52,434 nucleotides of DNA from Parvibaculum sp. (GCA_020062605.1 JAGUWA010000058.1:1-52434), one strand, 5' to 3'; positions 10,409 to 38,465 are shown, counted from the first letter of the stretch. Notes: a model not told the origin generated them from the letters alone. A program made the numbers and translations.

Positions 10409-10445
10409 CAGCCCTTGCCACACAAAAATAATTTTGTGTGGCAAA
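10409..10445. repeat. Left copy of 37-bp palindromic site (TTGCCACACAAAA-ATAA-TTTTGTGTGGCAA core)
   Basis: Perfect 13-bp arms; 32/37 identical to the reverse complement of 38429-38465. Confidence 0.85.
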
Positions 10446-10732
10446 TTGAGTGAAGTGGACGTGTCAAGGAAGAAAGCCCAGCAAATTGATTACGGGATTT
10501 GACCGGATTATCTTTTTCTACTTTTCCTTCAAACCTTCGTGTCGCGTTGAATGACGGACGCCACTCCGCACATCGAGCGAGTTCCCTTATGGCTGGCTTG
10601 ATTCCTTTAGGGTCGCGGGTATGCTTGTCAGCGACCCCATAAGCGAGGTCACTTTGATGTGGAGATTTCACTCCCCTGCAATTTTTTGTCCAGTACCCTG
10701 CGACAAACAAGCTTATTGGTTGTGCATTCAAT

Positions 10733-10755
10733 AAGATATATAGAAAATATATCTT
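10733..10755. promoter_or_regulatory. NsrR-type box upstream of ccoN
   Basis: AAGATATATAGAAAATATATCTT, 11-1-11 palindrome resembling the AAGATGCATTTnAAATACATCTT NsrR consensus. Confidence 0.75.
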
Positions 10756-10825
10756 ATTTCTGCCGCATCCGGATTCAGTACGTCTGAATCGTGCGCGCAC
10801 TTAGCCTAACCAACGCAAGAAACCG

Positions 10826-12475
10826 GTGCCGATGATTGCAACATTGACATCTACCGAGCGTCAAATCGCAATTGCCATTTCCATTCTTGTGTCCGTCTGC
10901 GGAATCGCACTTGCAGCCGCGGGACGACATGACCCATTGGAAATTCATGGATTTATTATTCTGGTGGCGGGACTTCTTTGCGCCATTGTCGTCATTCACA
11001 GCTATTACGAACCGGAGCCAACGCCCGACCGCTTGTCGAGTTACTACGATCCGCCTATCAAGGCGGGCATTGCCATGTCTATGGCTTGGGCAGTGTTCGC
11101 CATGTTCGTTGGCGTGTGGGTGGCATTGCTGCTCGCCTGGCCGGAACTGACATTTGATCAGCCTTGGGCCGGCTTCGGACGATTGCGGCCGGTTCACACT
11201 ACAGGCGTCATTTTCGGCTTCGGCGGGAATGCACTCATCGCGACGTCCTTTCACGTCATGCAGCGTACTTCACGCGCGCGTATGCCTGACCAGATCTCTC
11301 CCTGGTTTGTCCTTGCCGGCTACAATCTCTTCTGCATTCTTTCGGTCAGCGGCTACTTCATCGGTATTACCCAGTCGAAAGAGTACGCAGAAGCGGAATG
11401 GTATGCGGATATCTGGCTCGTTATCGTATGGGTGACCTACTTCGTACTTTACATACGAACGATAGCGCGTCGGAAGGAACCGCACATCTATGTAGCCAAC
11501 TGGTATTTTCTGGCGTTCATCCTCGTCGTCGCGATCCTGCATATCGTCAACAACATCGCCGTTCCGGTCTCGATCGGCCATGCCAAGAGCTACACTGTGT
11601 GGGCCGGCGTGCAGGATGCCATGGTGCAGTGGTGGTATGGCCACAATGCCGTTGCCTTCTTTCTGACGGCTGGCTTTCTCGGGATGCTCTACTATTACCT
11701 CCCCGTGAGAGCGCAACGCCCGATCTTCTCCTACCGGCTTTCGATCCTCAGCTTCTGGGGCATCACATTCTTCTACATGTGGGCCGGCTCTCACCACTTA
11801 CATTACACCGCCTTGCCCCACTGGGTGCAGACGCTAGGCATGACCTTCTCGGTAATGCTTCTGGTGCCGTCATGGGCGTCGGCTGGTAACGCGCTGCTAA
11901 CACTTAACGGCGCTTGGCACCGCGTGCGTGACGACGCAACGCTTCGTTTCATGATGGTCGCCGCGGTGTTCTACGGATTGTCCACGTTTGAAGGATCGTT
12001 CATGGCCATTCGGCCGGTGAACTCGCTCTCGCACTACACTGACTGGACGGTTGGGCACGTTCACGCCGGAGCACTCGGATGGGTTGCGCTGATTACCTTC
12101 GGTTCTTTTTATACGCTTGTGCCGAGTCTCTGGAAGCGCGAGCGCATGTACTCAGCCGGCCTTGTGGAAGTCCACTTCTGGCTCGCTCTGGCAGGCACGC
12201 TCGTCTACGTCTTCGCAATGTGGAACTCCGGCGTCATCCAAGGGCTTATGTGGCGGACATACACAAAGGAAGGAACCCTCGCCTATTCCTTCCTCGACTC
12301 ACTTGTGGCGATGCGCCCCTACTATGTTGCCCGGGCTTTCGGCGGCATTCTCTTTCTGGCCGGCGCAATCGTGGGCTCCTACAACATCTGGATGACAGTG
12401 CGAGCAGTTCCCCAAGCTGCCGACACCGGCAAGGACGCGCCCCAGCCCGAAAAAGTTGCGGTCGCGGGAGAATAA
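10826..12475 (+). CDS. ccoN: cbb3-type cytochrome c oxidase subunit I
   Basis: GRLRPVHT, QSKEYAE, QWWYGHNAV, HHLH, GHVH ligand motifs. Confidence 0.98.
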   Translation: MPMIATLTSTERQIAIAISILVSVCGIALAAAGRHDPLEIHGFIILVAGLLCAIVVIHSYYEPEPTPDRLSSYYDPPIKAGIAMSMAWAVFAMFVGVWVALLLAWPELTFDQPWAGFGRLRPVHTTGVIFGFGGNALIATSFHVMQRTSRARMPDQISPWFVLAGYNLFCILSVSGYFIGITQSKEYAEAEWYADIWLVIVWVTYFVLYIRTIARRKEPHIYVANWYFLAFILVVAILHIVNNIAVPVSIGHAKSYTVWAGVQDAMVQWWYGHNAVAFFLTAGFLGMLYYYLPVRAQRPIFSYRLSILSFWGITFFYMWAGSHHLHYTALPHWVQTLGMTFSVMLLVPSWASAGNALLTLNGAWHRVRDDATLRFMMVAAVFYGLSTFEGSFMAIRPVNSLSHYTDWTVGHVHAGALGWVALITFGSFYTLVPSLWKRERMYSAGLVEVHFWLALAGTLVYVFAMWNSGVIQGLMWRTYTKEGTLAYSFLDSLVAMRPYYVARAFGGILFLAGAIVGSYNIWMTVRAVPQAADTGKDAPQPEKVAVAGE

Positions 12476-12479
12476 TGCG

Positions 12480-13232
12480 ATGCCCGAACTCTTCCACCGT
12501 AAACTAGAGCGCTCCACCATCGGCTTCGTTCTGGCCGTCATAGCCGTCGCAAGCGTGGGCGGAATCGTGGAAATCGCGCCGCTCTTCACCATCGACGAAA
12601 CGGTCGAGGAAGCCCCCGACATGCGGCTGTATACGCCGCTCGAGCTGGCAGGCCGCAATATCTACATCCGCGAAGGTTGCTACGCATGCCACAGCCAGAT
12701 GATCCGCACTCTTCGCGACGAAGTCGAACGCTATGGCCCATATTCGCTTGCCGTTGAATCCCGTTATGATCACCCCATGCTGTGGGGCTCGAAAAGAACG
12801 GGTCCGGATCTGGCTCGCGTTGGCGACAAATATTCCGATCTTTGGCACGTTTCCCATCTAACAAACCCTCGCGATGTCGTTCCGGAGTCGAATATGCCCG
12901 CCTATCGATGGCTGGCGCGGAACCCGCTGCAGATGGAAGATCTTCCATTACATCTCGCGGCACAGCGCGCGGTCGGCGTACCCTATACTGACGACATGAT
13001 CGAAAATGCCGCGAAGGACGCATACGGGCAGGCGACTCCCGATAGCGATGCCGCATCGGGGGTTGCCGAGCGATACGGGGAAGAGACGCAGATTCGAGCT
13101 TTCGACGGCGTTGCCACGCGCGTCACGGAAATGGATGCTCTGGTGGCATATCTTCAGATCCTCGGGCGCATGACCGACGCGGCCTTCGAACACACAGCGG
13201 CACCCCAGGAGCCGCCAGAACCAGTCAAATGA
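12480..13232 (+). CDS. ccoO: cbb3-type cytochrome c oxidase subunit II
   Basis: EGCYACHSQMIR, WGSKRTGPDL, SNMP. Confidence 0.98.
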   Translation: MPELFHRKLERSTIGFVLAVIAVASVGGIVEIAPLFTIDETVEEAPDMRLYTPLELAGRNIYIREGCYACHSQMIRTLRDEVERYGPYSLAVESRYDHPMLWGSKRTGPDLARVGDKYSDLWHVSHLTNPRDVVPESNMPAYRWLARNPLQMEDLPLHLAAQRAVGVPYTDDMIENAAKDAYGQATPDSDAASGVAERYGEETQIRAFDGVATRVTEMDALVAYLQILGRMTDAAFEHTAAPQEPPEPVK

Positions 13233-13251
13233 TGAACAAGGAGCTCACGTG

Positions 13252-13422
13252 ATGGAGATCGATCACAATGCTCTCGTTTTCTTTTCCAAAAGCTGGGGCC
13301 TTCTCTACTTGGGCGGGTTCGCGGTTTGCGTTGTCGTCTATACCTTCTGGCCTTCTAACAAGAAGCGCTTCGTAAGGGCGAAAGAGAGCATTCTCGACCC
13401 GGTGGATAAGCCATGGCAGTAG
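13252..13422 (+). CDS. ccoQ: cbb3-type cytochrome c oxidase subunit CcoQ (56 aa)
   Basis: Manually translated MEIDHNALVFFSKSWGLLYL...YTFWPSNKKRF..AKESIL; AAGGAG RBS; lies between ccoO and ccoP. Missed by the ORF track. Confidence 0.92.
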   Translation: MEIDHNALVFFSKSWGLLYLGGFAVCVVVYTFWPSNKKRFVRAKESILDPVDKPWQ

Positions 13423-14294
13423 AAGAACGCGATCCGGTCAGCGGTCGGAAAACAACCGGACATGAATGGAACGGGATAACGGAGTTGGACACTCCCGTTC
13501 CGAAGGGTGTTCTAATTTTTCTGATCGTCACCCATGTGTTCGCGGTCCTCTGGTGGTTCCTGATGCCAACATGGCCGCTTGGGACCAGCTATACAAAAGG
13601 ATTTCTGGGGGTCAATCAACACAGCACCGTTGAAGAAAAGCTCGTGACCGCACAGGCAGGACGCGCTTCCTGGATGAATAGAATTGAAGCCGAGAGCTTC
13701 GAGCAGGTTCTGGCCGACCCGCAGCTCATGTCGATTGTCGAGAGCACTGGCCATCGTCTGTTCGGTGACAATTGCGCCGCCTGTCATGGCGTCGACGGAA
13801 AGGGCCGCGCGAACTACCCAAACCTGACAGATGACGATTGGTTGTGGGGTGGCTCAGTGGAAACCATCGCCGAGACGATGCGTGTAGGGATCAACACTGA
13901 ACATCCGGAAAGCCGTTTTGCGCAAATGCCCTCCTTCGGCGTCGACGGAACACTCAACCGCGAAGAGATAAGCAAAGCCGCAACTTACGTCTATTCTCTG
14001 AGTCATCCAGAGTTTTCGACGGAAGAGGTCAAGAAAAAGATCGAAAGCGGAAAAGAGGTTTTTCAGGCCAATTGTGCTTTTTGTCATGGCGAGGATGCGC
14101 GAGGAAATCAGGAGATTGGCGCGCCCAATCTGGCCGACGCGCGTTGGCTCTATGGCGGTGATCTGCAAACCATCGTGGATACTATTCATGGCGGACGGCA
14201 GGGGCACATGCCCACTTGGGACGAACGGCTGACAGAGGGAGAGATCAAGATACTCGCTCTCTATGTTCACTCGCTGTCGAAGGAAATGCGATGA
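13413..14294 (+). CDS. ccoP: cbb3-type cytochrome c oxidase subunit III
   Basis: TTGHEWNGITELD.P.P; two heme motifs CAACH and CAFCH. Confidence 0.97.
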   Translation: MAVEERDPVSGRKTTGHEWNGITELDTPVPKGVLIFLIVTHVFAVLWWFLMPTWPLGTSYTKGFLGVNQHSTVEEKLVTAQAGRASWMNRIEAESFEQVLADPQLMSIVESTGHRLFGDNCAACHGVDGKGRANYPNLTDDDWLWGGSVETIAETMRVGINTEHPESRFAQMPSFGVDGTLNREEISKAATYVYSLSHPEFSTEEVKKKIESGKEVFQANCAFCHGEDARGNQEIGAPNLADARWLYGGDLQTIVDTIHGGRQGHMPTWDERLTEGEIKILALYVHSLSKEMR

Positions 14295-14488
14295 TCCACA
14301 GCCAGGCAAAGGCCAGCATCAAGACAAGGCTTTTCATCTGGAGCATCGTTTCAGCGGCACTTTTGCTGTTCTTCGTCGCCAATGCGCACCTCGTATACGT
14401 TGCGTACGACTCCCAGCCGGATTGTATGCCGCATCTCAAGGAAGCAGGTAACAACGGAAACTTCAGAGCAGCGAAGTCTGCCTGCTGA
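14291..14488 (+). CDS. Small single-TM protein of alternative cco/fix operons
   Basis: TM helix then ANAHLVYVA..SQPDC..H...AAKSAC; ATGA overlap with ccoP. Confidence 0.75.
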   Translation: MIHSQAKASIKTRLFIWSIVSAALLLFFVANAHLVYVAYDSQPDCMPHLKEAGNNGNFRAAKSAC

Positions 14489-14501
14489 GGAGGAAAGACC
14501 T

Positions 14502-15320
14502 ATGAACGAAGTCGACAGCTCCTACGGCTTACTGAGCGAGACCTCCAGCATTGCCGAAACAAGAAACAAGAGTCTGCAGAGACATCTTCCCTTCACTATC
14601 GGCTTCAAATGGCTCCGCGCGGGGTGGCATGACCTAATCATTCATCCTGGACAAAGTTTGGCTTATGGTTTCGGCGTTTTTCTTGTTTCCCTGCTCGTTG
14701 TTATGTTGCTGGCTCAGCTCGACCTGGACTACATCCTTTTTCCTGCACTAGCCGGCTTCATGATCGTGGCTCCCATTTTGGCTGTCGGACTTTACGAGAA
14801 AAGCCGGACGTTGGAGAGCGGGGAACGCATAACTCTCCGGCGGATGTTCAGAGCCAAACCAAAAGCCGGTGCGCAGATCTATTTTGCCGGCGTGATGCTT
14901 TGCCTCCTCATGCTTCTCTGGATGCGCGCCGCCGTTCTTCTCTATGCCCTCTTTTTCGGCGTCAGGCCATTTCCGGGGCTCGATCACATCCTGGGGTTAC
15001 TCGTTACGCAGCCACTTGGGTGGTCAATGCTCATTGTGGGCACGGCGATCGGCAGTCTCTTTGCTTCATTCGCTTTTGCGATCAGCATTTTTTCCATTCC
15101 CATGCTGCTCGACCGCTCTACCGATGCGATGACGGCCATGGGCACAAGCATGGCGCTCGTCTGGAACAATTTCATTCCAATGGTGGTTTGGGGAATGATC
15201 GTCGTGGTTCTTTTCGCAATATGCGTTCTTACGGCGCTCACCGGGTTGATCGTGATTTTTCCTCTGCTGGGGCACGCCACTTGGCACGCCTACCGAATGG
15301 TCGCCCAATCGGACCAATAG
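14502..15320 (+). CDS. DUF2189-like integral membrane protein
   Basis: WLRAGW.D, AGFM.VAP.LA.GLYE.SR, P.LGHATWHAY; GAGGAGG RBS. Confidence 0.85.
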   Translation: MNEVDSSYGLLSETSSIAETRNKSLQRHLPFTIGFKWLRAGWHDLIIHPGQSLAYGFGVFLVSLLVVMLLAQLDLDYILFPALAGFMIVAPILAVGLYEKSRTLESGERITLRRMFRAKPKAGAQIYFAGVMLCLLMLLWMRAAVLLYALFFGVRPFPGLDHILGLLVTQPLGWSMLIVGTAIGSLFASFAFAISIFSIPMLLDRSTDAMTAMGTSMALVWNNFIPMVVWGMIVVVLFAICVLTALTGLIVIFPLLGHATWHAYRMVAQSDQ

Positions 15321-15411
15321 AGGTCATGTAAGAAGTGGTGTTCTTCTTACTTGGACCATCTAGCCGGTTCGTCAGGGAGGTCGCGATTTCTCGATCGCAG
15401 AAAGCGATTCA

Positions 15412-15633
15412 ATGACTGTCCTTGTATGGCTGATTCCAATAGCGCTGGTAATGGGTTTGGTCGCTTTGTGGGCGTTTATGTGGTCGATAGAAAGCGGCCA
15501 ATATGATGACCTTGAAGGCGCGGCGGAACGAGTTCTGCTCCATCCACAGGAGGACCACCCGCTACCAGATGAAAAAAGATGCAGTTCACGCGAAGAAGGA
15601 AGTAATGTTGAAGGTAATGGTTATGAGAAATGA
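15412..15633 (+). CDS. ccoS: cbb3 assembly protein CcoS/FixS
   Basis: LIPIAL.MG...F.WS..SGQYDDLEGAAERVL. Confidence 0.92.
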   Translation: MTVLVWLIPIALVMGLVALWAFMWSIESGQYDDLEGAAERVLLHPQEDHPLPDEKRCSSREEGSNVEGNGYEK

Positions 15634-15852
15634 CCTTTTCGGCGCGCGCCGCCTTGACCATTAGAATGGATGTGGTTCATGTCCGAGCTACTAAAGCACA
15701 AGATCGATCCGGTTGGAGCGGTGGCATTCATATTCGGATGCGCCGTTGTCGTCCCCAGCATAGCCGCCCTTGGGATCACCCTCTTGGCTGTCGTTCGCGT
15801 CGTCTTTTCTACCTGAAGGATGACGCGTTCAGGTCGGGCCTAAAATCGGTGA

Positions 15853-17595
15853 TCATTCGCGTTTCGTCTCCGCCAAACGGAAGGCGTTGCGGGCTTTCAA
15901 TAAATCCTGCCGCGACAGAATACCCACCACATGGCGGCTCGAAGGATCGATGATCGGAATGCGTCCTATTCCAGTCTCGATGATGATATCCGCTACCAAG
16001 CCGCTCGGGCTATTGGGGTAGGCAAAGGGTTGAGAAGCATCAGCGAGCGCATCAGCAATCGTGGTGCTGTCGGCGCTGCTGGCACTTTGCCAACGGAGCG
16101 CATCGGTTCGCGACACCAAGCCGAGAAGTCGCCTTTCGGAATCGACAACAGGATAGCTGCGATGTTTTGCTTTCTCACGAAAGAAGGCAAGTGCCTCCGC
16201 AACTGTGGTCGTCCCGGGAAGGGTTTTTGGATCTCGCGTCATGAGCTCTCCGGCTTGCATCAAGTCCAGCGAGTCAACCGAGTATTCCTGCAGTACATGA
16301 CGCCCGCGCCGCGCGATCTTCTCCGTCAAAATGGACCTGCGCATCAGCAATACGCTCACCGCATATGCACAACCCGCCGCAGCGATCGTACAAGGAAGCA
16401 TCTCGTAATGTCCGGTAAGCTCCACGGCGAACAATGCACCCGTGATGGGCGCTCTCATAGCACCGCTCATGATGCCGGCCATCCCCACCATTGCCCACCC
16501 TCCCGCCTCGCCCGGCAGAAGAAGACCCATGAGCGATCCGGCTGCTCCTCCCAGAATCAGAAGTGGTGCCAGCACGCCACCCGACGTGCCCGAACCCAGC
16601 GCAATAAGCCAAACGCAGGCCTTTACGATAAGCAGAGCCGTTACCACCTGCACCGCCAGGGAATTGTCGAGCAAAGATTGGATGCTGGTATATCCTGCCC
16701 CCAAAACATGCAGGTCGATGAGCCCGCCTATTCCGACCCCAACGCCACCTATAGCAGGCCACCACATCCAGTGGACAGGCAATCTGTGAAACAGGTCTTC
16801 TATCCAATATAGCGCCGTGGAAAGCAGCGTCGCCTCAAGGCCAGTAACAATGCCGATGCAAGCCGCAGCCGCAATTGATGCAGGCTCCACCACCATCGTC
16901 GTCAAAAAGGAAAACATCGGTCCGCCGTCGATCATCACCGGACGCCACAACCAGGCGACGAGTGCTGCGACGACCACAGGAACAAAACTTCGTGGTTTCC
17001 ACTCGAATAGTAGAACTTCGACCGCCAGCAAGATGGCGGCAAGCGGAGTGTTGAAAATTGCCGTCATGCCGGCAGCGGCGCCGGCAACCAGCAATGTCTT
17101 GCGCTCAGCCGCACTAAGATGGAAGCACTGAGCAAAAAGCGAACCGATTGCACCTCCGGTCATTATTATCGGGCCTTCTGCCCCAAACGGGCCACCACTG
17201 CCAATGGAGACTGCGGAAGATAGGGGCTTTAGAATGGCGACTTTCAACGAAAGCCTGCTCTCGCCGTATAGGATGGCTTCTATCGCCTCAGGAATTCCGT
17301 GACCGCGAATTTTTTCTGATCCGAATCGGGCCATCAATCCCACGATCAAGCTGCCCATCGCAGGTACCACGAGAACACCGAAGCCGATTGACGTTTCGGT
17401 GATCGATGCGGGAGCTACCGATACCCTGCCGAACCAAAAAAGGTTAGTCGCAAAAGCGATTAGCTGGAGTAAAATCCAAGCTCCGCAGGCCCCGCCTGTG
17501 CCAACCACCAGCGCCATTCCAGCTAACAAGATCATCCGCCAATCGGCGCTGTGATCAGCGAGCTGGTGATAATCAGCGATACGTCGGGACTTCAT
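15853..17595 (-). CDS. ClC chloride channel/antiporter with CBS domains
   Basis: GHGIPE, GAEGP, GTSGG motifs; C-terminal CBS pair. Confidence 0.92.
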   Translation of the reverse strand: MKSRRIADYHQLADHSADWRMILLAGMALVVGTGGACGAWILLQLIAFATNLFWFGRVSVAPASITETSIGFGVLVVPAMGSLIVGLMARFGSEKIRGHGIPEAIEAILYGESRLSLKVAILKPLSSAVSIGSGGPFGAEGPIIMTGGAIGSLFAQCFHLSAAERKTLLVAGAAAGMTAIFNTPLAAILLAVEVLLFEWKPRSFVPVVVAALVAWLWRPVMIDGGPMFSFLTTMVVEPASIAAAACIGIVTGLEATLLSTALYWIEDLFHRLPVHWMWWPAIGGVGVGIGGLIDLHVLGAGYTSIQSLLDNSLAVQVVTALLIVKACVWLIALGSGTSGGVLAPLLILGGAAGSLMGLLLPGEAGGWAMVGMAGIMSGAMRAPITGALFAVELTGHYEMLPCTIAAAGCAYAVSVLLMRRSILTEKIARRGRHVLQEYSVDSLDLMQAGELMTRDPKTLPGTTTVAEALAFFREKAKHRSYPVVDSERRLLGLVSRTDALRWQSASSADSTTIADALADASQPFAYPNSPSGLVADIIIETGIGRIPIIDPSSRHVVGILSRQDLLKARNAFRLAETKRE

Positions 17596-17671
17596 TCAGG
17601 ACCTTTATGCCTCGCTCACCTTTTTGGTTTATTATATCGTATTACGATATTTCTCAATACGAGCTTTTCCC

Positions 17672-18079
17672 TTGACCGAACGCCCTCTACGAGACCTCGA
17701 CTATGTGTTGCTGGCAGACTTTCGAGCAGCACTGCGCTCATTTGCAGCCTTCAGCGAAGCGAAGGCGGCAGAAGTCGGGCTTTCACCTCAGCAACATCAG
17801 GCGTTGCTTGCCATCCGCGGTTCTGCGCCGGAACAGGCTACCGTTGGCCACCTCGCCGAACGGCTGATGCTTAAACCTCACAGCGCTTCTGAATTGGTGA
17901 GCAGACTCGAAGCATTGGGTTTGGTCCAACGCGAGACAGCAGAAAATGACAGACGAATGTCGATTCTCCTCCTCACAGATCGAGCAAGAGAATTGCTTAC
18001 TCAGCTGTCTAAGCATCATCGCGACGAAATCCGTCGACTTAAGCCGCTTCTGCTCGACCTCCTCGAGCGCTTCAACTGA
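17672..18079 (+). CDS. MarR-family regulator divergent from clc
   Basis: GLSPQQHQALLAI, LAERL...HSASELVSRLE..GLV.R...DRR; start uncertain (17624 or TTG 17672). Confidence 0.85.
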   Translation: MTERPLRDLDYVLLADFRAALRSFAAFSEAKAAEVGLSPQQHQALLAIRGSAPEQATVGHLAERLMLKPHSASELVSRLEALGLVQRETAENDRRMSILLLTDRARELLTQLSKHHRDEIRRLKPLLLDLLERFN

Positions 18080-18313
18080 CAAGCTCACGGACAGGTAATT
18101 TTCCTGTTGCCAGATGTATGCGAATTTTCGACGCTGCATTACTGATCTGAAAGGGCATGCATCTCTTAGCGGAGATCCAGATTCTAATAGACAGTGCTAG
18201 TCTCCACATTGTTGGGTCGAAACCTACGTTTCCCCCGGGTAATGATGCTTTGTGACAGCCTTCCCGACGAGGGTGGTGACGCGATGCGGTCGTATCACCG
18301 CGCCACCAGCTTC

Positions 18314-18733
18314 TTATCTGTTCCGCTGCACACCGATTACCTTCAACGAGCGCTGATCGCCATATCGAGTGTTCCAGGAAATTGTGTTTCCGATCTTCAT
18401 TCCAAGAAGTGCAACACCCACGGGAGAAGCAAGTGAAACGACCCCTTCTCTCGACACGGCATTCTCGGGAAGCGCCAATGCGAGACGTTCTACGCGACCC
18501 GTGGCGCCGAAAATAAATTCGGCGGTCGAACCCACGGTGACCACGTCGAGCGGCACACGAAACAATGGTACCAGCCGAGCTCGCTCCAGTTCCCGCTCGA
18601 GGAAACGTCCGACTTCGGGAATTGCGTCAATCAGCAGTTCCGAAACTTCGCAAATCTCATCGAACTGTTCTTCGGCCACGACAATCGGTGGAAGGTCGGC
18701 GAAGGCCTCCGTCATTCTCTCTATGATTGCCAT
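18314..18733 (-). CDS. Rnk-like (GreA/GreB C-terminal domain) protein
   Basis: LERELERA, DVVTVGS, VSLASPVGVALLG...G.TISW. Confidence 0.85.
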   Translation of the reverse strand: MAIIERMTEAFADLPPIVVAEEQFDEICEVSELLIDAIPEVGRFLERELERARLVPLFRVPLDVVTVGSTAEFIFGATGRVERLALALPENAVSREGVVSLASPVGVALLGMKIGNTISWNTRYGDQRSLKVIGVQRNR

Positions 18734-19239
18734 TACGCAGCCTCCGGTCCGTCGTCTGTGCGACCTTGAGTCATCCGCGCTCGAGCCTCCGCTTCCGGCT
18801 GATTTTCAAGCGCCGATATTTCAATGCGGAGCTTCCTTCCATCGAATACCTCCGCCTCCACCGTCTCTCCCGGCTTCCTGCCGATAAGAGCAAGGCCCAC
18901 TGGGGTCAAAACGCTTACGTATTGCCCGTTTGGCACTTGTTGGTGACCAAGAGTCAGCAATCGACGTTGTTGAACGTCGCCATCGATGCGGTATCGCACA
19001 GTTGTACCGAGCGTGATTACATCCTCGGGCATTTCATCAGAGGGCAGGATCTGAGCTACGGACAAGAGGTGTGCGATCCATTGACGCATCGGGTTCAGCA
19101 TGTCGATTTCTTCGAATGCCGTTATTTCGAGGCGTCCATAGTCATGGGAGCTAAGCACCCGCCGGGGGTGTCTCGGTTCGTTGATTCTATTAGCTTTATA
19201 TGAAGGCAAGCGCGTTGCGCCGTTGTCCTTGTTCGACAT
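18733..19239 (-). CDS. Second Rnk/GreA-family protein
   Basis: MPEDVITLG, VSVLTPVGLALIGRKPGE, QPEA. Confidence 0.82.
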   Translation of the reverse strand: MSNKDNGATRLPSYKANRINEPRHPRRVLSSHDYGRLEITAFEEIDMLNPMRQWIAHLLSVAQILPSDEMPEDVITLGTTVRYRIDGDVQQRRLLTLGHQQVPNGQYVSVLTPVGLALIGRKPGETVEAEVFDGRKLRIEISALENQPEAEARARMTQGRTDDGPEAA

Positions 19240-19477
19240 AGCGGAATCCTCACAGCGGAACGGCGTTGCAGCCGCCCGTCTATCTAGTTCAAATTTGGTG
19301 TGAGAACGATGTCCCCGGACTTCGCGCGCGCATGCGCCGCGTCGGCCCGGGGCTAAACTCCCGCGAGCAACGTACCAGGCGCAAGAAACTGAAATTCGTT
19401 CGCGAATTGCATAAAATAAGTCTACTGCATTTCAAAAAGTTGTCAAAGTACACGGATCCTGGATCCTTTTGCGCAAA

Positions 19478-20191: not shown

Positions 20192-20345
20192 AGCGTGATC
20201 CTCCCAAATAGAGATTAGATGAAAAAGAAGCGCAAAGGTTCCCGGCATCGATCCTTTTTGTGCATCGGCCGGAAAGGGATTTCGGGAACCTTGCCGTCCC
20301 TTCTCCATCAAATGGGCATTCCCATTCCCAAGAACGAGACAAGAC

Positions 20346-28578: not shown

Positions 28579-28666
28579 AATATATTGTTCTTATACCGTA
28601 ATAACATTCTCTTGTTTGCGGCTTAGTACGGCTGCATTTTAACCGCGTCGCCCAAAGGAGTTTCCC

Positions 28667-29293: not shown

Positions 29294-29307
29294 CCGCAGG
29301 AATAGCC

Positions 29308-30018
29308 ATGCATGCGCCTTTCGATTTGACGATGGAGGAAGAGGGAGAGATTGTCGCTGGAGAGGATGGGGACGGCGGTCTTTCCAACTTGTTTGAGCGA
29401 AACAAAGTTTGGGCGGAGCGCAAAACAAGATCCGATCCAAGCTTTTTCAGACGCTTGGTTGGTCAACAAACTCCACGTTACTTTTGGATCGGGTGCTCTG
29501 ATAGCCGCGTACCCGCGACGGAAATTGTCGACCTCGATCCTGGAGAGATGTTCGTTCACCGAAACGTTGCGAACCTGGCAAGCGCTTCAGATCTGAGCTT
29601 TTCTGCGGCTTTGCAGTTCGCCGTCGACGTGCTTCAGGTTCGTCACGTCATTGTAGTCGGACATTATGGTTGTGGTGGCATCTCTGCCGCGATAAGCGGC
29701 CGTGCAAACGGCAAAATTGGCTGCTGGCTCAATCCGGTGCGCAAACTTTGTTGCTCCCTATCGCACAGTTCTTCAAATGATGTTCTGGATCCAAACATAT
29801 TGTGCGAACTCAATGTTGTCGCTCAGGTGGAAGCACTCGTACTCAATCCGACTATAGGCGCTGCCTGGGCACGGCAGGCGGATCTGACTTTGCATGGATG
29901 GGTATACGGAATTGGCGATGGACTTTTAAGAAGCGTATGCGATCCGGTAACGCCGCTGGGGCGCTCCGAGGCGGTGAGCAGCCCAAAAGCACAGACAAAT
30001 GACAGCGCACTCTTCTAA
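29308..30018 (+). CDS. can: Beta-carbonic anhydrase
   Basis: WIGCSDSRVP, FVHRNVAN, GHYGCGG. Confidence 0.93.
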   Translation: MHAPFDLTMEEEGEIVAGEDGDGGLSNLFERNKVWAERKTRSDPSFFRRLVGQQTPRYFWIGCSDSRVPATEIVDLDPGEMFVHRNVANLASASDLSFSAALQFAVDVLQVRHVIVVGHYGCGGISAAISGRANGKIGCWLNPVRKLCCSLSHSSSNDVLDPNILCELNVVAQVEALVLNPTIGAAWARQADLTLHGWVYGIGDGLLRSVCDPVTPLGRSEAVSSPKAQTNDSALF

Positions 30019-30427
30019 CGCTGACCTGATCCAAGCCGCGATAGATGCATGTCGCGCCGGCAAGTCACCAAACAGGCAGTTAGATTCCCAAGTTGCGCGA
30101 GCAATTTTTTCCCATCTCGCAGCCATGCAGGAAATCGAGGTGGGCATCTGGCAGAATGCAGATGGAACTCGGATGACAGCGCCACGATACAGCTCCTCTG
30201 TCGCGGCAGCGATGACGCTAATTCCTTCCGGCTACCGGCTTGAAGATAGCGGATCATATTTCGTCGTGGTCGGCGACTCGGGATCGTCGAGGGGGCGTCA
30301 CAAGTATTTGGCCATCGGACTCTGCATTGCGGCGCTCCGTTGCCGCTTGGTGAATGAGATCACCATACCCCTCAAGCAGGATAAAGATTTGCGGCCAGCC
30401 GTCCATTCCAGCATCTCGCTCGGCTAA
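29999..30427 (+). CDS. Hypothetical protein, phage ABA-sandwich-like pattern
   Basis: RQLD..VARA...PRYSSSVAAA..L...A.GLCIAAL. Confidence 0.55.
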   Translation: MTAHSSNADLIQAAIDACRAGKSPNRQLDSQVARAIFSHLAAMQEIEVGIWQNADGTRMTAPRYSSSVAAAMTLIPSGYRLEDSGSYFVVVGDSGSSRGRHKYLAIGLCIAALRCRLVNEITIPLKQDKDLRPAVHSSISLG

Positions 30428-30453
30428 CGCCGAAAACATGGGAGCTTTATCCG

Positions 30454-31116
30454 ATGACACCTCGAGCAGCAGCTCAGAGAAAATTTTCTCTTCCCCCACT
30501 ACCTTATGATCGCGATGCATTGTCTCCCCATCTATCCGCAGAAGCGATCGACATTCACTACGGCAGACACCATGCCCGCTACATTGAAACCCTCAATCGC
30601 CTTGTTGAAAATCTCAGAACGTCCCCCGCTACACTCGAGGCGCTCATTCACCATTCGCGCGAGTCGGATGCCCCTCTTTTCAACAACGCTGCACAAGCAT
30701 GGAATCATGCATTTTTCTGGGAAAGCATGTCTCCGCAAGCAACCGAGCCCGCGGATGAACTGCGGGAAGCCATCTCCCAGAGGTTCGGAAGTGTTGATAC
30801 TTTGAGGGAACGCTTCATCGCCGAGGGAACTGGACATTTCGGTTCAGGCTGGGTGTGGTTGGTCTCCCACAAAGGCGATCTTTCCGTAACATCCACACAC
30901 GATGCGGGCACGCCGATCACCAACGACGGCGTGACTGCCCTATTAGCGTGCGATGTTTGGGAACACGCTTATTACATTGACTACCGCCAAGATCGGGCCA
31001 CCTGGTTGGCAAAATGGTGGGATCATCTTGCTAACTGGCGCTTTGCTCAAACGCAATACGAAGCTTCGCTGGGCAAGGTCCGTGGCTGGGTATTTCTTGA
31101 CACCGGTGATGCTTAA
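30454..31116 (+). CDS. sodB: Fe/Mn superoxide dismutase (Fe-type)
   Basis: HY.RHH..Y, FNNAAQAWNH.FFW, FGSGW, DVWEHAYY. Confidence 0.93.
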   Translation: MTPRAAAQRKFSLPPLPYDRDALSPHLSAEAIDIHYGRHHARYIETLNRLVENLRTSPATLEALIHHSRESDAPLFNNAAQAWNHAFFWESMSPQATEPADELREAISQRFGSVDTLRERFIAEGTGHFGSGWVWLVSHKGDLSVTSTHDAGTPITNDGVTALLACDVWEHAYYIDYRQDRATWLAKWWDHLANWRFAQTQYEASLGKVRGWVFLDTGDA

Positions 31117-31556
31117 TAAGAAGGGCGAATGAGAGGTGGCAGAAATTTGAATCGGTGCACCCCAATTTCGCTGCGTCCACATGGCGCAATCACCTCGTCA
31201 TCGGCAGACGCATACTTGCTTGGACTGAGTGAGCCTTCATCACAAAATCAGCACGGCCGCTACTGTAACCGGGCGGCCTCACTGTCCGAATCGGAATTTG
31301 GTCGCTCCATTTGTATTCGTTTGGAGGAATTCATGAGAGCCACAGTAGCGATGAGATGGCTTAGTCGCCGCGGTCTGTGGATTACATTTTTGACTGCGGC
31401 TTTGGTGACCATTCTCTTCGTTGTATTCCTTCCCCGCGTCGCACGTGTGGATGGAACTTCCAATCGAGCGTCCATGTCGCAGTTGCGCATCGAAGACAAC
31501 ATTCATCCAGATTGACTCAAACTTCTCTTGCCTTCTGCACTACGTTGAGGTGCCTT

Positions 31557-31895
31557 TTAGTCTCCTTCACCTGCTTTAGGGCTAAACGCCGCCAGCTTCC
31601 CCGAGATTCCATTCAGAGCATCCGCTTCTGGCATAGGCGTCTTTTTCCGCGTCAGATTCGGCCATTTGCCAGCATACTCTGCATTCAATTCTAGCCATTG
31701 CGGTGTGGCCGGTTGGTCTGTATCCGGAAATATCGCTTCAGCCGGGCATTCTGGAACGCAGACTCCACAATCGATGCATTCGTCCGGGTGAATCACCAGC
31801 ATATTTTCGCCTTCGTAGAAGCAATCGACCGGGCACACCTCCACGCAGTCGGTGAACTTGCATTTAATGCAGTTATCCGTAACTACGTGCGTCAT
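31557..31895 (-). CDS. fdxA: 7Fe ferredoxin FdxA
   Basis: [30 protein letters not shown]. Confidence 0.95.
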
Positions 31896-31912
31896 GTCTC
31901 ACCTCTGGGTAA

Positions 31913-31935
31913 TTGATATATTTGATATATATCTT
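31913..31935. promoter_or_regulatory. NsrR-type box upstream of fdxA
   Basis: TTGATATATTTGATATATATCTT. Confidence 0.72.
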
Positions 31936-31986
31936 TTAGGGCATAACAAAGCCGAAAATTCCGCCTTTTTGAGTTGGTCAGCCAGT

Positions 31987-32484
31987 CTAATTGCGACCTT
32001 TTCCCTTCCCCCCTCGCCCTCTCTTCCACCTAAGATCTGGACCGCGGGTTTCATCAACCGGCACTCCCAGGCGGCCGAAATCTTTTCGCTTAAGAGTGAT
32101 ATCGGCGAGAGTATATTTATCTAAAGTCCCGACAAAAGAGAGTAACGCTTCGTTCAACACGTTTGCCAACTCGCATTTTTTGGTCAACACACATTGATTG
32201 CCGGTGGCAAAGCACTCTACCAATGCGAAATCCGGTTCTGTTTCCCGAACTACATTTCCAAGGTTAATTTTCTTGGGAGCTATCGCGAGCATGAATCCCC
32301 CGGAGCGGCCGCGCACGCTCTTCAGGTATCCTGCCCTTGTCAGCATATTCACCACCTTCATCAAGTGCGCCTTTGAGATGTCATAAACCTTCGACGTCTC
32401 ATCGATTGTGATAAGCCGGTCATTCTCAGCCGCTGCATATATAAGGACGCGCAAGGCATAGTCGGAAAGTGTCGTTAAGCGCAT
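31987..32484 (-). CDS. nsrR: Rrf2-family regulator, NsrR type
   Basis: MRLT..SDYALR.L, HLMKVV, RGRSGG, three Cys in ECF...NQC....C; divergent from nnrS. Confidence 0.88.
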   Translation of the reverse strand: MRLTTLSDYALRVLIYAAAENDRLITIDETSKVYDISKAHLMKVVNMLTRAGYLKSVRGRSGGFMLAIAPKKINLGNVVRETEPDFALVECFATGNQCVLTKKCELANVLNEALLSFVGTLDKYTLADITLKRKDFGRLGVPVDETRGPDLRWKRGRGGKGKGRN

Positions 32485-32579
32485 GTCTTATCCACTAGGT
32501 TGGGCACAAGTTCTTAGAGCCGCTCCGGATACAGATCGATCATTCATGCGACAAACGGCGTCATCGTTTTGTCGGGTTT

Positions 32580-32602
32580 ATGATATATTTTATATACATC
32601 TT
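32580..32602. promoter_or_regulatory. NsrR-type box in the nsrR/nnrS intergenic region
   Basis: ATGATATATTTTATATACATCTT. Confidence 0.8.
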
Positions 32603-32657
32603 ATGGACGGATGTACGACATTGCCATTTCCCGTCAAATGTGCGCGGAGGACGCCCG

Positions 32658-33833
32658 ATGAAGAGAGGTGCGGTTCGGACGGATACATTGACGCTGCTCA
32701 CCTACGGTTTCCGGCCATTCTTTCTCGGCGGCGCTATATGGGCTGTGATGGCTATGTTGCTCTGGGTCGGGATAGTCGCTGGGCGAATAAAGATCGACCT
32801 CGGCTTACCTCAGATATCTTGGCACGCTCATGAATTTCTGTTCGGCTATGTAGGAGCGATCATAGCCGGATTTCTGCTGACCGCAGTTCCAAACTGGACC
32901 GGGCGCGCTCCATTGCAAGGTTTCGTGTTGCTCTCCCTTCTAGTTCTCTGGATAGCGGGAAGGGTAGCCCTTCTGGCGGCAGGACTAGTTGACTACTGGG
33001 TAGCTGCATTTGTTGATGTTCTTTTCTTGCCATCCCTTGCCCTATTTCTACTGCGGGAGGTTCGCGCAGCTGGAAGCAATGCCAACATCCTAATAATAGC
33101 TGTTGTTTTGGTACTGGCCCTCGCCAATGTGCTTTTCCACACCGAAATAATCGTCTACGGGTATACGACATTCGCCGGGCGCGGCTCCATTTCGCTGATC
33201 CTTCTTCTCATCGTATTGATCGGTGGACGCATAGTGCCGAACTTCACCAGAAACTGGCTCGCAGGGAGAGGGGAACACCGCCTGCCTGCACCAATGGATG
33301 GATTTGACCACACAGTGATCGCGATAAGCGTGGCCTCATTGATCATGTGGACGTTTTTCCCATCCATGCCTCTTACCCCACTGTTTTTGCTAACCGCCGG
33401 CGTCTTTCACGCGGTTCGCCTTGGACGATGGTCGGGCTGGCGCACTCGATCTGAACCTCTCGTCTTTATTCTTCATGTGGGCTACGCGTTTGTCCCCTTT
33501 GGGTTCCTATTGGCTGGAGTGTCGTTGATCTGGCCGTCCATCGTCATGCCTTCCACCGCTACTCACGCGTGGACAAGTGGAGCTATGGGAACAATGACGC
33601 TCGCCATCATGACACGTGCGACTCGGGGACATTCTGGCCGCTCTCTAACGGCTCCTCGCACAACGCAGATTGCATACTTGTGCATCATTTTGGCGGGCGT
33701 TCTGCGGCTCGGTGAGGCCTGCCTGCCCGACGCATCAATGACACTCTATGTTCTGTCAGCTCTTTCTTGGGTCGCCGCGTTTAGCATCTTTTTGATGATC
33801 TATGGCCCGATGCTTGTACTGCCCCGGCGCTAA
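32658..33833 (+). CDS. nnrS: NnrS heme-Cu membrane protein
   Basis: GFRPFFL, WHAHE.LFGY, GFLLTAVPNWTG, GGRIVP.FT, RAT.GHSGR. Confidence 0.95.
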   Translation: MKRGAVRTDTLTLLTYGFRPFFLGGAIWAVMAMLLWVGIVAGRIKIDLGLPQISWHAHEFLFGYVGAIIAGFLLTAVPNWTGRAPLQGFVLLSLLVLWIAGRVALLAAGLVDYWVAAFVDVLFLPSLALFLLREVRAAGSNANILIIAVVLVLALANVLFHTEIIVYGYTTFAGRGSISLILLLIVLIGGRIVPNFTRNWLAGRGEHRLPAPMDGFDHTVIAISVASLIMWTFFPSMPLTPLFLLTAGVFHAVRLGRWSGWRTRSEPLVFILHVGYAFVPFGFLLAGVSLIWPSIVMPSTATHAWTSGAMGTMTLAIMTRATRGHSGRSLTAPRTTQIAYLCIILAGVLRLGEACLPDASMTLYVLSALSWVAAFSIFLMIYGPMLVLPRR

Positions 33834-33874
33834 ATTTTGCTCAGACGCACAACTGGAGAGTCCCGCCATTAAAA

Positions 33875-35254
<1,380 letters not shown>

Positions 35255-35331
35255 CTATTGGCAGGTCGCAGAGGTTTCAGATGTCGCCCGCCCGGTGGCA
35301 GGCTGAGATATCGCTTGTACTTGCGCAGGTT

Positions 35332-35760
35332 CTAGATGATGTGAATTCGAACGTCCACGTTTCCTCTTGTCGCATGTGAATATGGGCAGATTTTTTGATG
35401 CGCCACCTCGACGATCTCCGATTTCTGCTCGGCTTCGAGACCATCAATCCGGACTTCAAGCTCCACAGAAATTGAGAATCCGCCCTGCGTTCGCGGTCCG
35501 ATTCCAACGTTCGCTGTTACTTGTGTACCAGGTCCCAACGAGAATCCCCGATCTCCGGCCGCAAGCCTTACCGCACCTTCAAAGCAAGCCGCATATCCAG
35601 CCGCGAAAAGCTGCTCGGGATTAGTTTTAGGGCCTCCCGGCCCACCAAGTTCGGCCGGCATGACGAGTTCCAACTCCAGAACACCGTCACTGCTCCGCAC
35701 ATGGCCCTCGCGTCCGCCTTTCGCTGTAACAACCGCGGTATATAGAACACCAGTCGACAT
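35332..35760 (-). CDS. ohr: Organic hydroperoxide resistance protein
   Basis: GGREG, TNPEQLFAAGYAACF, CPYS.ATRGN. Confidence 0.95.
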   Translation of the reverse strand: MSTGVLYTAVVTAKGGREGHVRSSDGVLELELVMPAELGGPGGPKTNPEQLFAAGYAACFEGAVRLAAGDRGFSLGPGTQVTANVGIGPRTQGGFSISVELEVRIDGLEAEQKSEIVEVAHQKICPYSHATRGNVDVRIHII

Positions 35761-35773
35761 AGCTTTCTCCGCT

Positions 35774-35989
35774 CTACTTGGGGTTATTGGTTCGTTTCGC
35801 CGCACCGATCTTCATCCAATCGCGCAGAAGCCCCTTGTCTTCCTTAGAGAAACGCGCACGCGCCTTGAGATTTTCAAAAGTGTCGCCTGGATAGGATCTT
35901 TCGTAGTCACGGCAAATCGCTCTTTCGATCGCCTCCCATTCATCCGGATCTGACGGCCCGATCTTTTGCAAAACTCCGTTTGCTGACAT
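35774..35989 (-). CDS. Small conserved-looking hypothetical protein upstream of ohr
   Basis: DYERSYPGDTFENLKARARFSKEDKGLLRDW; 13 nt from ohr; start uncertain. Confidence 0.6.
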   Translation of the reverse strand: MSANGVLQKIGPSDPDEWEAIERAICRDYERSYPGDTFENLKARARFSKEDKGLLRDWMKIGAAKRTNNPK

Positions 35990-36177
35990 ATAACGTTCGC
36001 CATTCGAACTAGCGTCAGTCACCGTGTGACACATCGTCTCTGAACCTGTATTCACAGACGTCCTTTCGTCCGGCCTTCAGGTGTTGCAAGCGCTCCCATC
36101 AGAAGGGACTGCGGTATTGTTGCGCATGTCAAAACTTGCTACGACGAAAATAACTCTTTGCATTTTATACCCACAAT

Positions 36178-36200
36178 AACATATAATTTATATATATCTT
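36178..36200. promoter_or_regulatory. NsrR-type box upstream of hyp-ohr(-gdhA)
   Basis: AACATATAATTTATATATATCTT. Confidence 0.6.
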
Positions 36201-36520
36201 TTAGCGCAGTGTACCGAATACGCTTCGCTGTTCGTGATCAATCCTTCCTCCTCGGCCACGACCTCGACGTCGCGAAAATGCCAGGTCACTGGCTACTGGC
36301 ACGTTTGGATAAGCGTGTGCGTCGCTCCGGGGCCTAGGAATGACTCAGAAATTTCTTGCCAGCCTTACCATTACAGAGGGGTAACAATGTAGTCGAGTTT
36401 GCTCTCGGGCTCGATGGGACCGCATCTCGCATCATTCCATGCACACCAAGTCGTTACATCGGTATCGAACATGCCAAAGAAGCTGCCACTTGGACGCTGA
36501 TGCATCACCACATCCTTCTT

Positions 36521-36871
36521 CTACATTCTCTCTTTCAGAAATTCGGCAAGAACAACTGCATGATTGTGAGCCTCATCACGCGCGCCATATAGCAGCGTTG
36601 CACAATCATTTCCCATTACCTCCTTTAGCCGTTCCACTTCGTCTTCATTGCTCTCAAGCTCTTGCCGGTATTTCTTCTTGAACTCTGTCCACCGCGACGG
36701 ATCATGTCCGAACCATTTCCGAAGAGATGCGCTAGGCGCAATCTCCTTGTGCCATAACGCAATTCCCGCCGCCTCTTTCTTTACCCCACGCGGCCAAACA
36801 CGATCGACCAATACACGCACCCCATCTTGAGGGGACTTCTTTTCGTATATTCTCTTCACCTGGATTTTCAT
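36521..36871 (-). CDS. DUF488/YeaO-family protein
   Basis: KRIYE...DG.RVLVDRVWPRG, APS..LRKWFGHD, HNHAVVL. Confidence 0.92.
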   Translation of the reverse strand: MKIQVKRIYEKKSPQDGVRVLVDRVWPRGVKKEAAGIALWHKEIAPSASLRKWFGHDPSRWTEFKKKYRQELESNEDEVERLKEVMGNDCATLLYGARDEAHNHAVVLAEFLKERM

Positions 36872-36922
36872 CGACCATCACTCCCTCTGGGGGATACCGG
36901 CAAAATTTTTCAGCCGAATGTT

Positions 36923-36945
36923 AACATGTATCTGATATATTTCTT
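36923..36945. promoter_or_regulatory. NsrR-type box between divergent DUF488 and membrane-protein genes
   Basis: AACATGTATCTGATATATTTCTT. Confidence 0.68.
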
Positions 36946-36984
36946 TAATGCCTTACATCGACTTCTCGGAATTGAGGCGATCAG

Positions 36985-37443
36985 ATGGCTCGCACAAAGA
37001 CAGGGATATACTCACTAGCCGCGATGTCGGTGGCTATAGTTTCTCTCGTGTGGGCAGGAATGATCGTCGGTGTTTCGGGTCTGGCTACACCTGCGAAGTT
37101 CGTCGCACCGTCTCTGAATCTACCAATCGCTCTGGAAGTTGGCCGAGTTACCTTTCAAGTCTTTAGTAAGGTTGAATGGGTTTTTGCGTTTTTTTTGGGC
37201 TTGTCGATCACAAGCGTTGGTTGGCGCTTTCCTGCTTTCTGTTGGACCGTTCTTGCTGTTGTTGTCGTTCTTCTGATCCTTCAAGCAGTGTGGCTTTTGC
37301 CTGTTCTCGATGCTCGCGTGAGTGCCGTCATAGCAGGAGTTCCTCAGCAAACGAGTATTGCACACGTGCTATATGTTGCAGCTGAATCAATAAAGATCGT
37401 CGGCTTGCTTGTCATAGGGGGGACGGCAATTCGGGCGTCTTAG
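36985..37443 (+). CDS. Four-TM membrane protein (DUF4149-like)
   Basis: W.GM..GVS.LATP.KF.AP.L, VGR..F, WLLP.LDAR, H..Y...E..K. Confidence 0.75.
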   Translation: MARTKTGIYSLAAMSVAIVSLVWAGMIVGVSGLATPAKFVAPSLNLPIALEVGRVTFQVFSKVEWVFAFFLGLSITSVGWRFPAFCWTVLAVVVVLLILQAVWLLPVLDARVSAVIAGVPQQTSIAHVLYVAAESIKIVGLLVIGGTAIRAS

Positions 37444-37818
37444 GTGCTCAAGGAAAATGCCTGAGGACCCTCGAACGATGCTAAGCTGAGAGCAAGTTTC
37501 AAAGTGATAGTGCTCGGAATGTTTGCCTGAATCGACGCTACGCAGTCTCAACTCCGTGCACCCTTAAACGTTTAATGGTCACAGCGAATTGATAGGAGCG
37601 TGCTATGCGATTGACACTATTCCAAGGAGTAATGGCACTCTTCTTTTGCCAGTCTGCTTTACTCCGCCCCCGCTCCACGAGGAGCGAGAAGGATTCCCGT
37701 AATGGGTTCACTTCTTCCTCACGTCATACCGATCGCTCGGAACGTTGGAACATTCAGCAACTTGCGAGGCTATTGCAGGGATAGCCGCTGTGCAGGAGTC
37801 AGAGTACGGGCTTGGAAT

Positions 37819-38145
37819 ATGCTTCAGTTGATTTTCATACTTCCCGATGGCACCGAAAAATTGTTCCGCGTCCATTCCGGCGAGAATGTTATGGATGTGG
37901 CGGTATCCAATGAGATTGACGGCATTTCCGCGAATTGCCGCGGTAATTGTGCCTGTTCTACGTGCCACGTTTACGTGGAGCCAGAATGGCTGGAGCGGGT
38001 GGGTACCGCCTCGGGTATGGAAGAAGATATTCTCGATTTCGCACCGGACGCACGATCCGAAAGCAGACTTTGTTGCCAGCTTACTATGTCGAAGAAACTT
38101 GACGGACTGAGGTTGCGCGTTCCTGACTGGCAACGCTGGAATTGA
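37819..38145 (+). CDS. Adrenodoxin/putidaredoxin-type 2Fe-2S ferredoxin
   Basis: CRGNCACSTCHVYV, SRLCCQ. Confidence 0.92.
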   Translation: MLQLIFILPDGTEKLFRVHSGENVMDVAVSNEIDGISANCRGNCACSTCHVYVEPEWLERVGTASGMEEDILDFAPDARSESRLCCQLTMSKKLDGLRLRVPDWQRWN

Positions 38146-38428
38146 CGATACTTTCTATTCTTTCCCGTCACCCGAAACTTAAATATGCGAATGCCCGATA
38201 TCGACGTCTTCTCGCGACGCGCGTCTATCGGAGCAGTTGAACCAGTACGCCAAAAGCCGCTCGTCGCCGCTGTCGCGCCGTCCCAGAAAATGCCCCTGTC
38301 CACGTCGATGCTCGGCTCTACCTCGACCGGAGAAAAACGAGGCGCCCGGCGGGGAGCAATGGGTGAAAACCCCGAACCAAGCCGGAAGATTGCGGCGACC
38401 TTCAAGTTTCATCAGCCTTGTAATGGCC

Positions 38429-38465
38429 TTTACCACACGGAAATATTTTTGTGTGGCAAGAGCTG
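38429..38465. repeat. Right copy of 37-bp palindromic site (TTACCACACGG-AAATATTT-TTGTGTGGCAA core)
   Basis: Reverse complement matches 10409-10445 at 32/37. Confidence 0.85.

Follow-up and report, generated by a model that had tools for sequence, protein, structure and literature searches.

Here, we report that a 28-kb cargo block in Parvibaculum sp. is present or absent by a crossover inside a palindrome that stands at either end of the block, in a stretch of 52,434 nucleotides (GCA_020062605.1 JAGUWA010000058.1:1-52434; the window below means this whole stretch). The palindrome is likely a leftover operator of the GSU2403 nucleotidyltransferase family (NTP_transf_8, PF12281), and the crossover between its directly repeated copies was probably made by host hairpin-stimulated repair, not by the recombinase encoded next to it; taken as a whole, we regard this account as an even call. 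Both the operator prediction for the GSU2403 family and the base-resolved cargo breakpoint appear to be undescribed; our literature search, with subscription papers and supplements outside its scope, found nothing on DUF6634, NTP_transf_8/PF12281, DUF6788 or a Parvibaculum genomic-island recombinase, and for GSU2403 only a table row and no function paper. Genomes are labelled G, loci L, sequencing runs X and contigs C, and G000 is the whole assembly containing the window (79.5% complete).

A palindrome at both ends of the cargo

The sequence at 10409-10445 and the reverse complement of 38429-38465 are identical at 32/37 positions, as a first-pass annotation of the window had noted, and the two copies also align as a direct repeat over 34 nt at 85%. 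We searched the window with the pattern TTGCCACAC-N12-GTGTGGCAA, allowing up to three mismatches, and obtained exactly two matches, the left one (copy B) with no mismatch and the right one (copy A) with one (Table 1), while shuffled sequences gave a mean of 0.01 matches and 0/100 shuffles reached two. Seven places in G000 matched the motif at up to four mismatches, and the two window copies were the only ones with zero or one mismatch. Similarly, with a weight matrix trained on 31 non-Parvibaculum sites, only these two copies scored at least 14 in G000 (53.1 and 47.3), and the annotation's statement that there is no third copy is borne out for good copies by both searches. Its division of each core into 11-bp arms and an 8-bp spacer holds for copy B and for the cargo-free (empty) alleles; copy A has three arm mismatches. 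The left half of copy B and the right half of copy A are paired at 20/21 positions counted from the centre, so that the 37-bp "inverted" match arises because it joins two halves of one longer palindrome. A gene scan of the window confirmed that the sites lie where the annotation had put them, copy B 200 bp past an xre-RES toxin-antitoxin pair and copy A 93 bp before the stop of a DUF6634 gene, itself downstream of the gene of a 774-aa recombinase, with trpS beyond.

We then compared alleles with and without the cargo. In G002, which is complete in one contig, and in G031, xre-RES is followed by a single motif copy and then by DUF6634, the recombinase and trpS, the cargo being missing. Both are also without the segment between copy A and the DUF6634 stop, which leaves the right breakpoint ambiguous from these two genomes alone. 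Contig 8 of run X7 joins the RES-side flank through one motif to a right flank that includes a diverged copy of this segment, which places the right breakpoint at the motif; the difference in the segment is an indel separate from the cargo indel. In runs X12 and X3, an empty allele of the G002 type occurs next to the cargo allele. The empty site carries the letters of copy B at motif positions 0, 3, 10 and 11 and those of copy A at 17 and 31, with the switch from B to A between positions 11 and 17. A crossover inside the motif therefore distinguishes the cargo-bearing from the cargo-free alleles. In each empty allele a single hybrid copy is left, so that the break in synteny falls within the motif and the two copies behave as direct repeats. 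The proposal that the sites bracket the cargo thus stands, related islands (G002, G031 and contigs of runs X7, X12 and X3) breaking exactly at the motif, whereas the inverted orientation favoured by the annotation, and with it an inverted-orientation cassette, is rejected in view of the left-copy/right-copy hybrids. Terminal inverted repeats of a transposon were also rejected, the empty alleles keeping one copy and the scanned cargo open reading frames (ORFs), 31 in all, having neither a transposase nor an integrase domain. The switch at 11-17 overlaps the spacer at 12-19, and a central exchange of this kind is not specific to a tyrosine-recombinase mechanism. Copies A and B differ at one spacer position and the empty alleles at another, and three diverged empty types have in common a centre letter that is absent from both window copies.

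The cargo allele recurs nearly unchanged, L141 being 99.6% identical. Its left junction was present in X2, X3 and X4 and its right junction in X2, X4, X5, X7 and X12 (X1 was left out of this tally). In G037, a contig edge holds copy A together with 985 bp from the right end of the cargo, the remaining cargo and copy B not being found in that assembly. The cargo allele is nearer to one empty type than the empty types are to one another when DUF6634, the recombinase and trpS are compared, and over xre-RES the cargo and empty alleles are about equidistant. From the former we favour gain of the cargo over its loss, with moderate confidence because the flanks recombine. Neither an inversion nor a circle joint was found in the contigs of seven runs, although contigs lose rare variants and this is no evidence of absence; the single run of raw reads, X24, gave none that fell on this stretch. 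Related cargo blocks in G013, G006 and G031, 72-88% identical, end without the motif, and the cargo's unique end segments had no outside match among the loci compared, nor had the right end any in 301 class genomes. In PLSDB, neither junction was matched across the motif among the matches listed (30 of 76 and 30 of 57), while a metagenome scan with the motif region returned one locus, the cargo allele itself, and a viral scan two unrelated loci. The suggestion that the sites are nested with a Tn7-like element is not supported, as in G002 the site and the recombinase occur but no tns genes do over the 80 kb that we compared.

NTP_transf_8 genes and a candidate operator

Exact matches to the motif were found at 67 loci in GTDB contigs. 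At 15 of these the motif stands directly before the start of an intact PF12281 gene of about 345 aa, in two copies at 14/15 loci, 33-58 bp apart, one second copy having a 13-base spacer. Another 11 loci have one motif copy, mostly with an AT-rich centre, and no NTP_transf_8 gene; 39 of the remainder, mostly in other phyla and with GC-richer centres, were set aside as likely chance or hairpins. To avoid the circularity of a motif-based search, we also sampled NTP_transf_8 as a protein family. The gene was present in 35/401 sampled class genomes, and a 9-12-9 palindrome (at least 8/9) occurred within about 125 bp of the start at 17 of the top 30 loci and as a pair at 12/30, compared with 162/3000 and 29/3000 random windows, respectively. 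The arm sequence tracks the protein clade in a 45-row quick tree, GTTATAC(G/T)C in one and (T/A)T(G/A)CCACAC in the other, an association that is descriptive, related sequences sharing labels. G000 has an NTP_transf_8 gene of its own on contig C421, which falls in the GTTATAC(G/T)C clade, a clade other than the one whose sites match the window motif. There (L076, ~1315-1405), two GTTATACTC-N12-GAGTATAAC palindromes end at the NTP_transf_8 start codon.

The 12-bp centres differ freely between copies. When positions 10-11 were compared with 20-21 in gene orientation, G:T occurred seven times and A:C six times; the pairing is thus not biased towards RNA of one strand, which is what a protein site on double-stranded DNA would show. 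A genome-wide transcription-factor regulon was rejected, as G000 has only two sites and other genomes have one or two true sites each. The N-terminus of the NTP_transf_8 protein is predicted to form a helix, three strands and a long helix (model pLDDT 57, poor), and Atlas relates this part to DUF6788 at 0.78-0.80, as a lead only.

The nearest known logic for these loci, by analogy, is that of AbiE and Rv2827c. In AbiEi of S. agalactiae and in Rv2827c, a nucleotidyltransferase locus has tandem inverted repeats across its promoter, and one of its own products binds them; Rv2827c has two repeat pairs within -1 to -131 (PMC7319586). NTP_transf_8 loci resemble these in having tandem inverted repeats at a nucleotidyltransferase promoter or start. 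They differ in that AbiE has 23-bp repeats, a separate antitoxin that binds them and a DUF1814 toxin (PMC7319586), whereas the NTP_transf_8 loci have 9-12-9 sites, predicted binding and only one gene, of PF12281, whose product includes a fused N-terminal domain. An AbiE type IV two-gene operon with a DUF1814 toxin was rejected on this ground, and at the four gene-bearing nudC-pheA loci in Table 1 a single PF12281 gene lies between the two flanking genes, with no PADLOC match.

At the 11 single-copy loci, one copy remains although such a gene is missing. No PF12281 match was found in four gene-less genomes tested. In 5/5 close pairs, the gene-less allele retains one copy and breaks 0-7 bp from the end of that copy, so that the palindrome is a recurrent breakpoint, remote from any copy of the recombinase. 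At L024 the gene-less allele retains the 3' tail of the NTP_transf_8 gene, indicating that this case is a deletion. In one alphaproteobacterial family, the NTP_transf_8 gene has been repeatedly gained and lost in the nudC-pheA gap (Table 1).

We propose that the NTP_transf_8 protein would bind the palindromes and repress its own gene, and that the Parvibaculum island would once have held such a gene, or acquired a leftover site, between RES and DUF6634. The cargo block would then have come to carry a second leftover copy and have joined in at the first, gain being judged likelier than loss. AT-centred palindromes are fragile DNA. A near-perfect one would be fragile and would supply homology over about 30 bp whichever way it is oriented, so that no dedicated enzyme would be needed. 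As a separate observation, L107 (G434:C9) has an xre-RES pair with an NTP_transf_8 gene immediately upstream, and the two can therefore share an island. This account would give the GSU2403/NTP_transf_8 family its first candidate DNA site and regulatory logic, which makes the family directly testable, and it offers a base-resolved case in which a 28-kb stress and low-oxygen block is present or absent at a palindrome apparently derived from a regulator. If the recombinase is not involved, it would be a clean example of leftover operators as rearrangement hot spots.

Several observations weigh against this proposal. No NTP_transf_8 gene adjoins either window copy, and protein and DNA profiles found no remnant at the junctions or empty sites, so that a former gene at the Parvibaculum site is inferred; nor was a gene of the matching clade found in G000, G002, G031 or G037. 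In the protein-family sample, 13/30 loci are without such a palindrome, the random-window control is not promoter-matched, and other spacer lengths give 8-16/30, so that a 12-bp spacer is not uniquely favoured; these lengths score because the NTP_transf_8 sites are long palindromes. The top Foldseek matches of the N-terminal part are integrase arm-binding domains (3rmp and 3jtz, weak at E 0.34 and 0.51), a wider fold search giving no confirmation. The gene-less loci were found through the motif, with a bias to intact copies, and deletions that removed the motif are therefore invisible. The preference for gain over loss is based on pairwise identities of flanks that recombine. The motif 30-mer is identical in G002 and G031, while the 40 bp to its left are alike at only 27/40 positions, which suggests a present function and is unexpected of a dead operator. 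Finally, the crossover window at 11-17 falls partly within the 8-bp centre, a position to be expected from a tyrosine recombinase, and the recombinase lies 0.8 kb from the motif and is intact in G000, G031 and G037.

The adjacent recombinase and other explanations

The first-pass annotation had called the large neighbouring protein an atypical recombinase, and it is indeed of the tyrosine-recombinase type. Residues R569, K618, H716, R719 and Y751 are invariant in 88/88 aligned sequences. The structure model (pLDDT 80.8) has XerH, XerD, XerA and Cre as its best Foldseek rows (PDB 5jk0, 1a0p, 4a8e and 1crx), with probability 0.96-1.0 but E 0.017 or weaker, and Atlas compares the protein at 0.99 to "Phage integrase family protein". 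Its likeness to the Cre/Xer recombinases lies in the predicted catalytic fold and the R-K-H-R-Y set in the C-terminal half of its 774 aa; the differences are about 340 additional N-terminal residues and an atypical H/W position, D742 or H750. It is matched by no Pfam, NCBIfam or PADLOC model, and a sequence search of solved structures gave no match. Relatives numbered 1,192 among 7,994 candidates scored (sequence clusters). In PLSDB, 198 plasmids match it, mostly from Rhizobiaceae and mostly annotated as hypothetical.

The annotation had further taken the sites to be substrates of this protein, which our comparisons do not support. The recombinase lies within 10 kb of the motif at 2/67 exact-match loci, both of them the Parvibaculum element itself, and the motif is absent near all 36 homologous loci outside this element (0/36, best score 9.1; 33 loci were read to 1.5 kb and three to 10-12 kb), while elsewhere it looks like the operator of a different gene family; these are largely the outcomes that the annotation itself had named as refuting its reading. 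No motif at up to two mismatches was found in G004, which has recombinase copies of 78% and 63%, in G016 or in three whole plasmids. In G016, the recombinase is joined to RES without DUF6634 and without the motif. In a sample of 301 genomes from another family, the recombinase is present in 45 and the motif pattern in 13, nine of these at nudC-pheA; two of the nine also have the recombinase, unlinked to the motif. A conserved site for the recombinase family was rejected, as the 1.5 kb around 39 loci revealed no conspicuous shared k-mer or palindrome, and so was DUF6634 as partner of the motif, which is missing at three other recombinase-DUF6634 loci. Judging from these comparisons, the adjacent recombinase is probably not the responsible enzyme; an undescribed recombinase-driven capture system is possible, and co-occurrence does not support it.

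A broader idea is that a GSU2403-family operator was taken over as a portable site for site-specific recombination, by the recombinase lineage or by an arm-type domain of the nucleotidyltransferase, and swaps multi-kilobase cargo in alphaproteobacterial islands. We consider this doubtful. Narrower and somewhat less probable is the explanation that the 774-aa recombinase lineage, with or without DUF6634, came to use the palindrome as a core site and inserted the cargo by site-specific recombination between directly oriented sites, which we judge unlikely; apart from the orientation, this is what the annotation had proposed. It would account for the readable 11-8-11 geometry with a central crossover and for a conserved motif amid drifting flanks, and a recombinase 93-100% identical, of a type whose catalytic residues are invariant, adjoins the motif in all four true-motif genomes of the genus. 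These four cases are one element, however, and so not independent. Homologues of 78-89% identity (G004, G009, G016 and G023) have no motif nearby, with none genome-wide in G004 and G016; the 0/36 count and the G016 recombinase-RES join point the same way. In addition, the G002 recombinase (L086) has one internal TAG, yet the motif site is intact. The G016 copy is in pieces. If the recombinase did use the site, a family of more than 1,190 sequence clusters would have its first substrate, and an operator would have turned into an att site.

Two inverted arms around a short spacer are the geometry of loxP, FRT and dif and of the pdif sites of Acinetobacter. The Parvibaculum sites share with these the inverted arms, accessory genes bounded by copies and a hybrid single site when empty, but the centres of the motif family vary freely, and there is one event at one site, with no module ladder. 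The attA/attD sites of R. etli IntA are alike in being a short palindrome with a divergent centre that joins large DNA in Alphaproteobacteria, and IntA accepts a one-base att difference, which would suit use by a recombinase; they differ in that the cognate enzyme is demonstrated and the site, of 23 bp, has another sequence (PMC4928290), whereas the Parvibaculum recombinase family does not travel with the site.

Another explanation takes the motif itself as the recombination or targeting site, at which the NTP_transf_8 protein or host XerC/D would pair the copies, a gene cassette would home beside a copy and other DNA would be exchanged. At nudC-pheA, single gene-less copies stand to full loci as 6 to 3, none of the 14 gene-less loci examined keeps both copies (0/14), the breaks lie at a copy's edge, and the integrase arm-binding domains in the top Foldseek rows, weak as they are, fit such a role. 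Nevertheless, we think it quite improbable, given that the NTP_transf_8 gene never has copies on both sides, L024 is a deletion, the 12-bp centres vary freely among copies and the matching protein was not found in the Parvibaculum genomes or the four gene-less genomes. The spacer, moreover, is 8 bp, where dif and pdif sites have 6 bp, and in a by-eye comparison the arms differ from the dif consensus.

An equally improbable explanation is that single copies persist between convergent genes because they form RNA hairpins at 3' ends, and that the cargo state is ancestral, the empty alleles arising by replication-slippage deletion between direct repeats. Deletion between direct repeats requires no enzyme. 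The gene-less copies do lie between convergent genes (RES/DUF6634 and nudC/pheA), and the predicted hairpins reach -16 to -32 kcal/mol. However, copy B has no U-tract terminator, no terminator-like site was found in the region around it (10150-10900) and no Rfam match in the window, and the pairing is without a strand-specific bias. The centre letter shared by the three diverged empty types is foreign to the window copies, while the cargo allele is near-identical across samples, and the origin of the two cargo-flanking copies is left unexplained.

Cargo genes and neighbouring loci

The positions of the features discussed are collected in Table 1. The cargo carries genes for a cbb3 oxidase, a ClC channel, an ECF sigma factor, cysIJ, peroxiredoxin, SOD, Rrf2, NnrS, GDH, OsmC and ferredoxins, with a theme of low-oxygen, sulphur and oxidative-stress genes.

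Table 1. Features of the Parvibaculum window and loci of the nudC-pheA gap
Feature	Position	Strand	Remark
Copy B, left copy of the 9-12-9 palindrome	10415..10444	.	agrees in its left half with the one copy in cargo-free alleles
Copy A, right copy of the palindrome	38430..38459	.	agrees in its right half with the one copy in cargo-free alleles
Cargo, 28 kb	10445..38429	.	missing at this site from G002, G031 and the empty alleles of X7, X12 and X3
xre-RES toxin-antitoxin pair	8972..10215	+	left flank common to cargo-free alleles
Segment between copy A and the DUF6634 stop	38461..38547	.	diverged in the X7 empty allele; 5 bases instead in the G002/X12 type; absent in G031
DUF6634 gene	38553..38897	-	recurrent downstream neighbour of the recombinase family, motif-less elsewhere
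GAAC-N7-GAAC direct repeat	38943..38957	-	LexA-box type, upstream of DUF6634; sole such site in the window
774-aa predicted tyrosine recombinase	39298..41622	-	large unnamed alphaproteobacterial family
nudC-pheA loci			with NTP_transf_8 gene: L030, L047, L057, L063; gene-less: L004, L024, L035, L038, L143, L147, L148

GAAC-N7-GAAC is the alphaproteobacterial LexA-box type (PMC8565304), and DUF6634 may be SOS-induced, judging from this LexA-like box. The repeat is retained in G002, G031 and G037 and also stands before more distant DUF6634-like copies in G013 and G031; it was not found in L213, L214 or L217. On the other side of the recombinase, and divergent from it, the tryptophanyl-tRNA synthetase gene (41699-42958) accompanies it in G002, G031 and G037 at 92.6-99.8% identity. 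Further on, 44058-47389 encodes a Crp/FixK-like regulator, a response regulator and a PAS kinase, which the recombinase separates from the cbb3 oxidase genes that they would normally control.

At the left of the window, a Tn7-like tnsA-tnsB-tniB-tniQ module occupies 3038-8018, with an array of 15-16-bp direct repeats ahead of it at 2872-2948. These repeats are possible TnsB sites, and no inverted counterpart of the array was found in the window. Three 24-bp repeats with a spacing of 49-50 bp (726-848) surround the start of a helix-turn-helix (HTH) gene that precedes hipA, and are likely HipB-type operators. Within the cargo, five AT-rich repeats lie in promoters (10729-10758, 31909-31943, 32576-32610, 36174-36208 and 36926-36953); two of them flank the divergent Rrf2/nnrS region, and the five are candidate operators of an Rrf2-family regulator.

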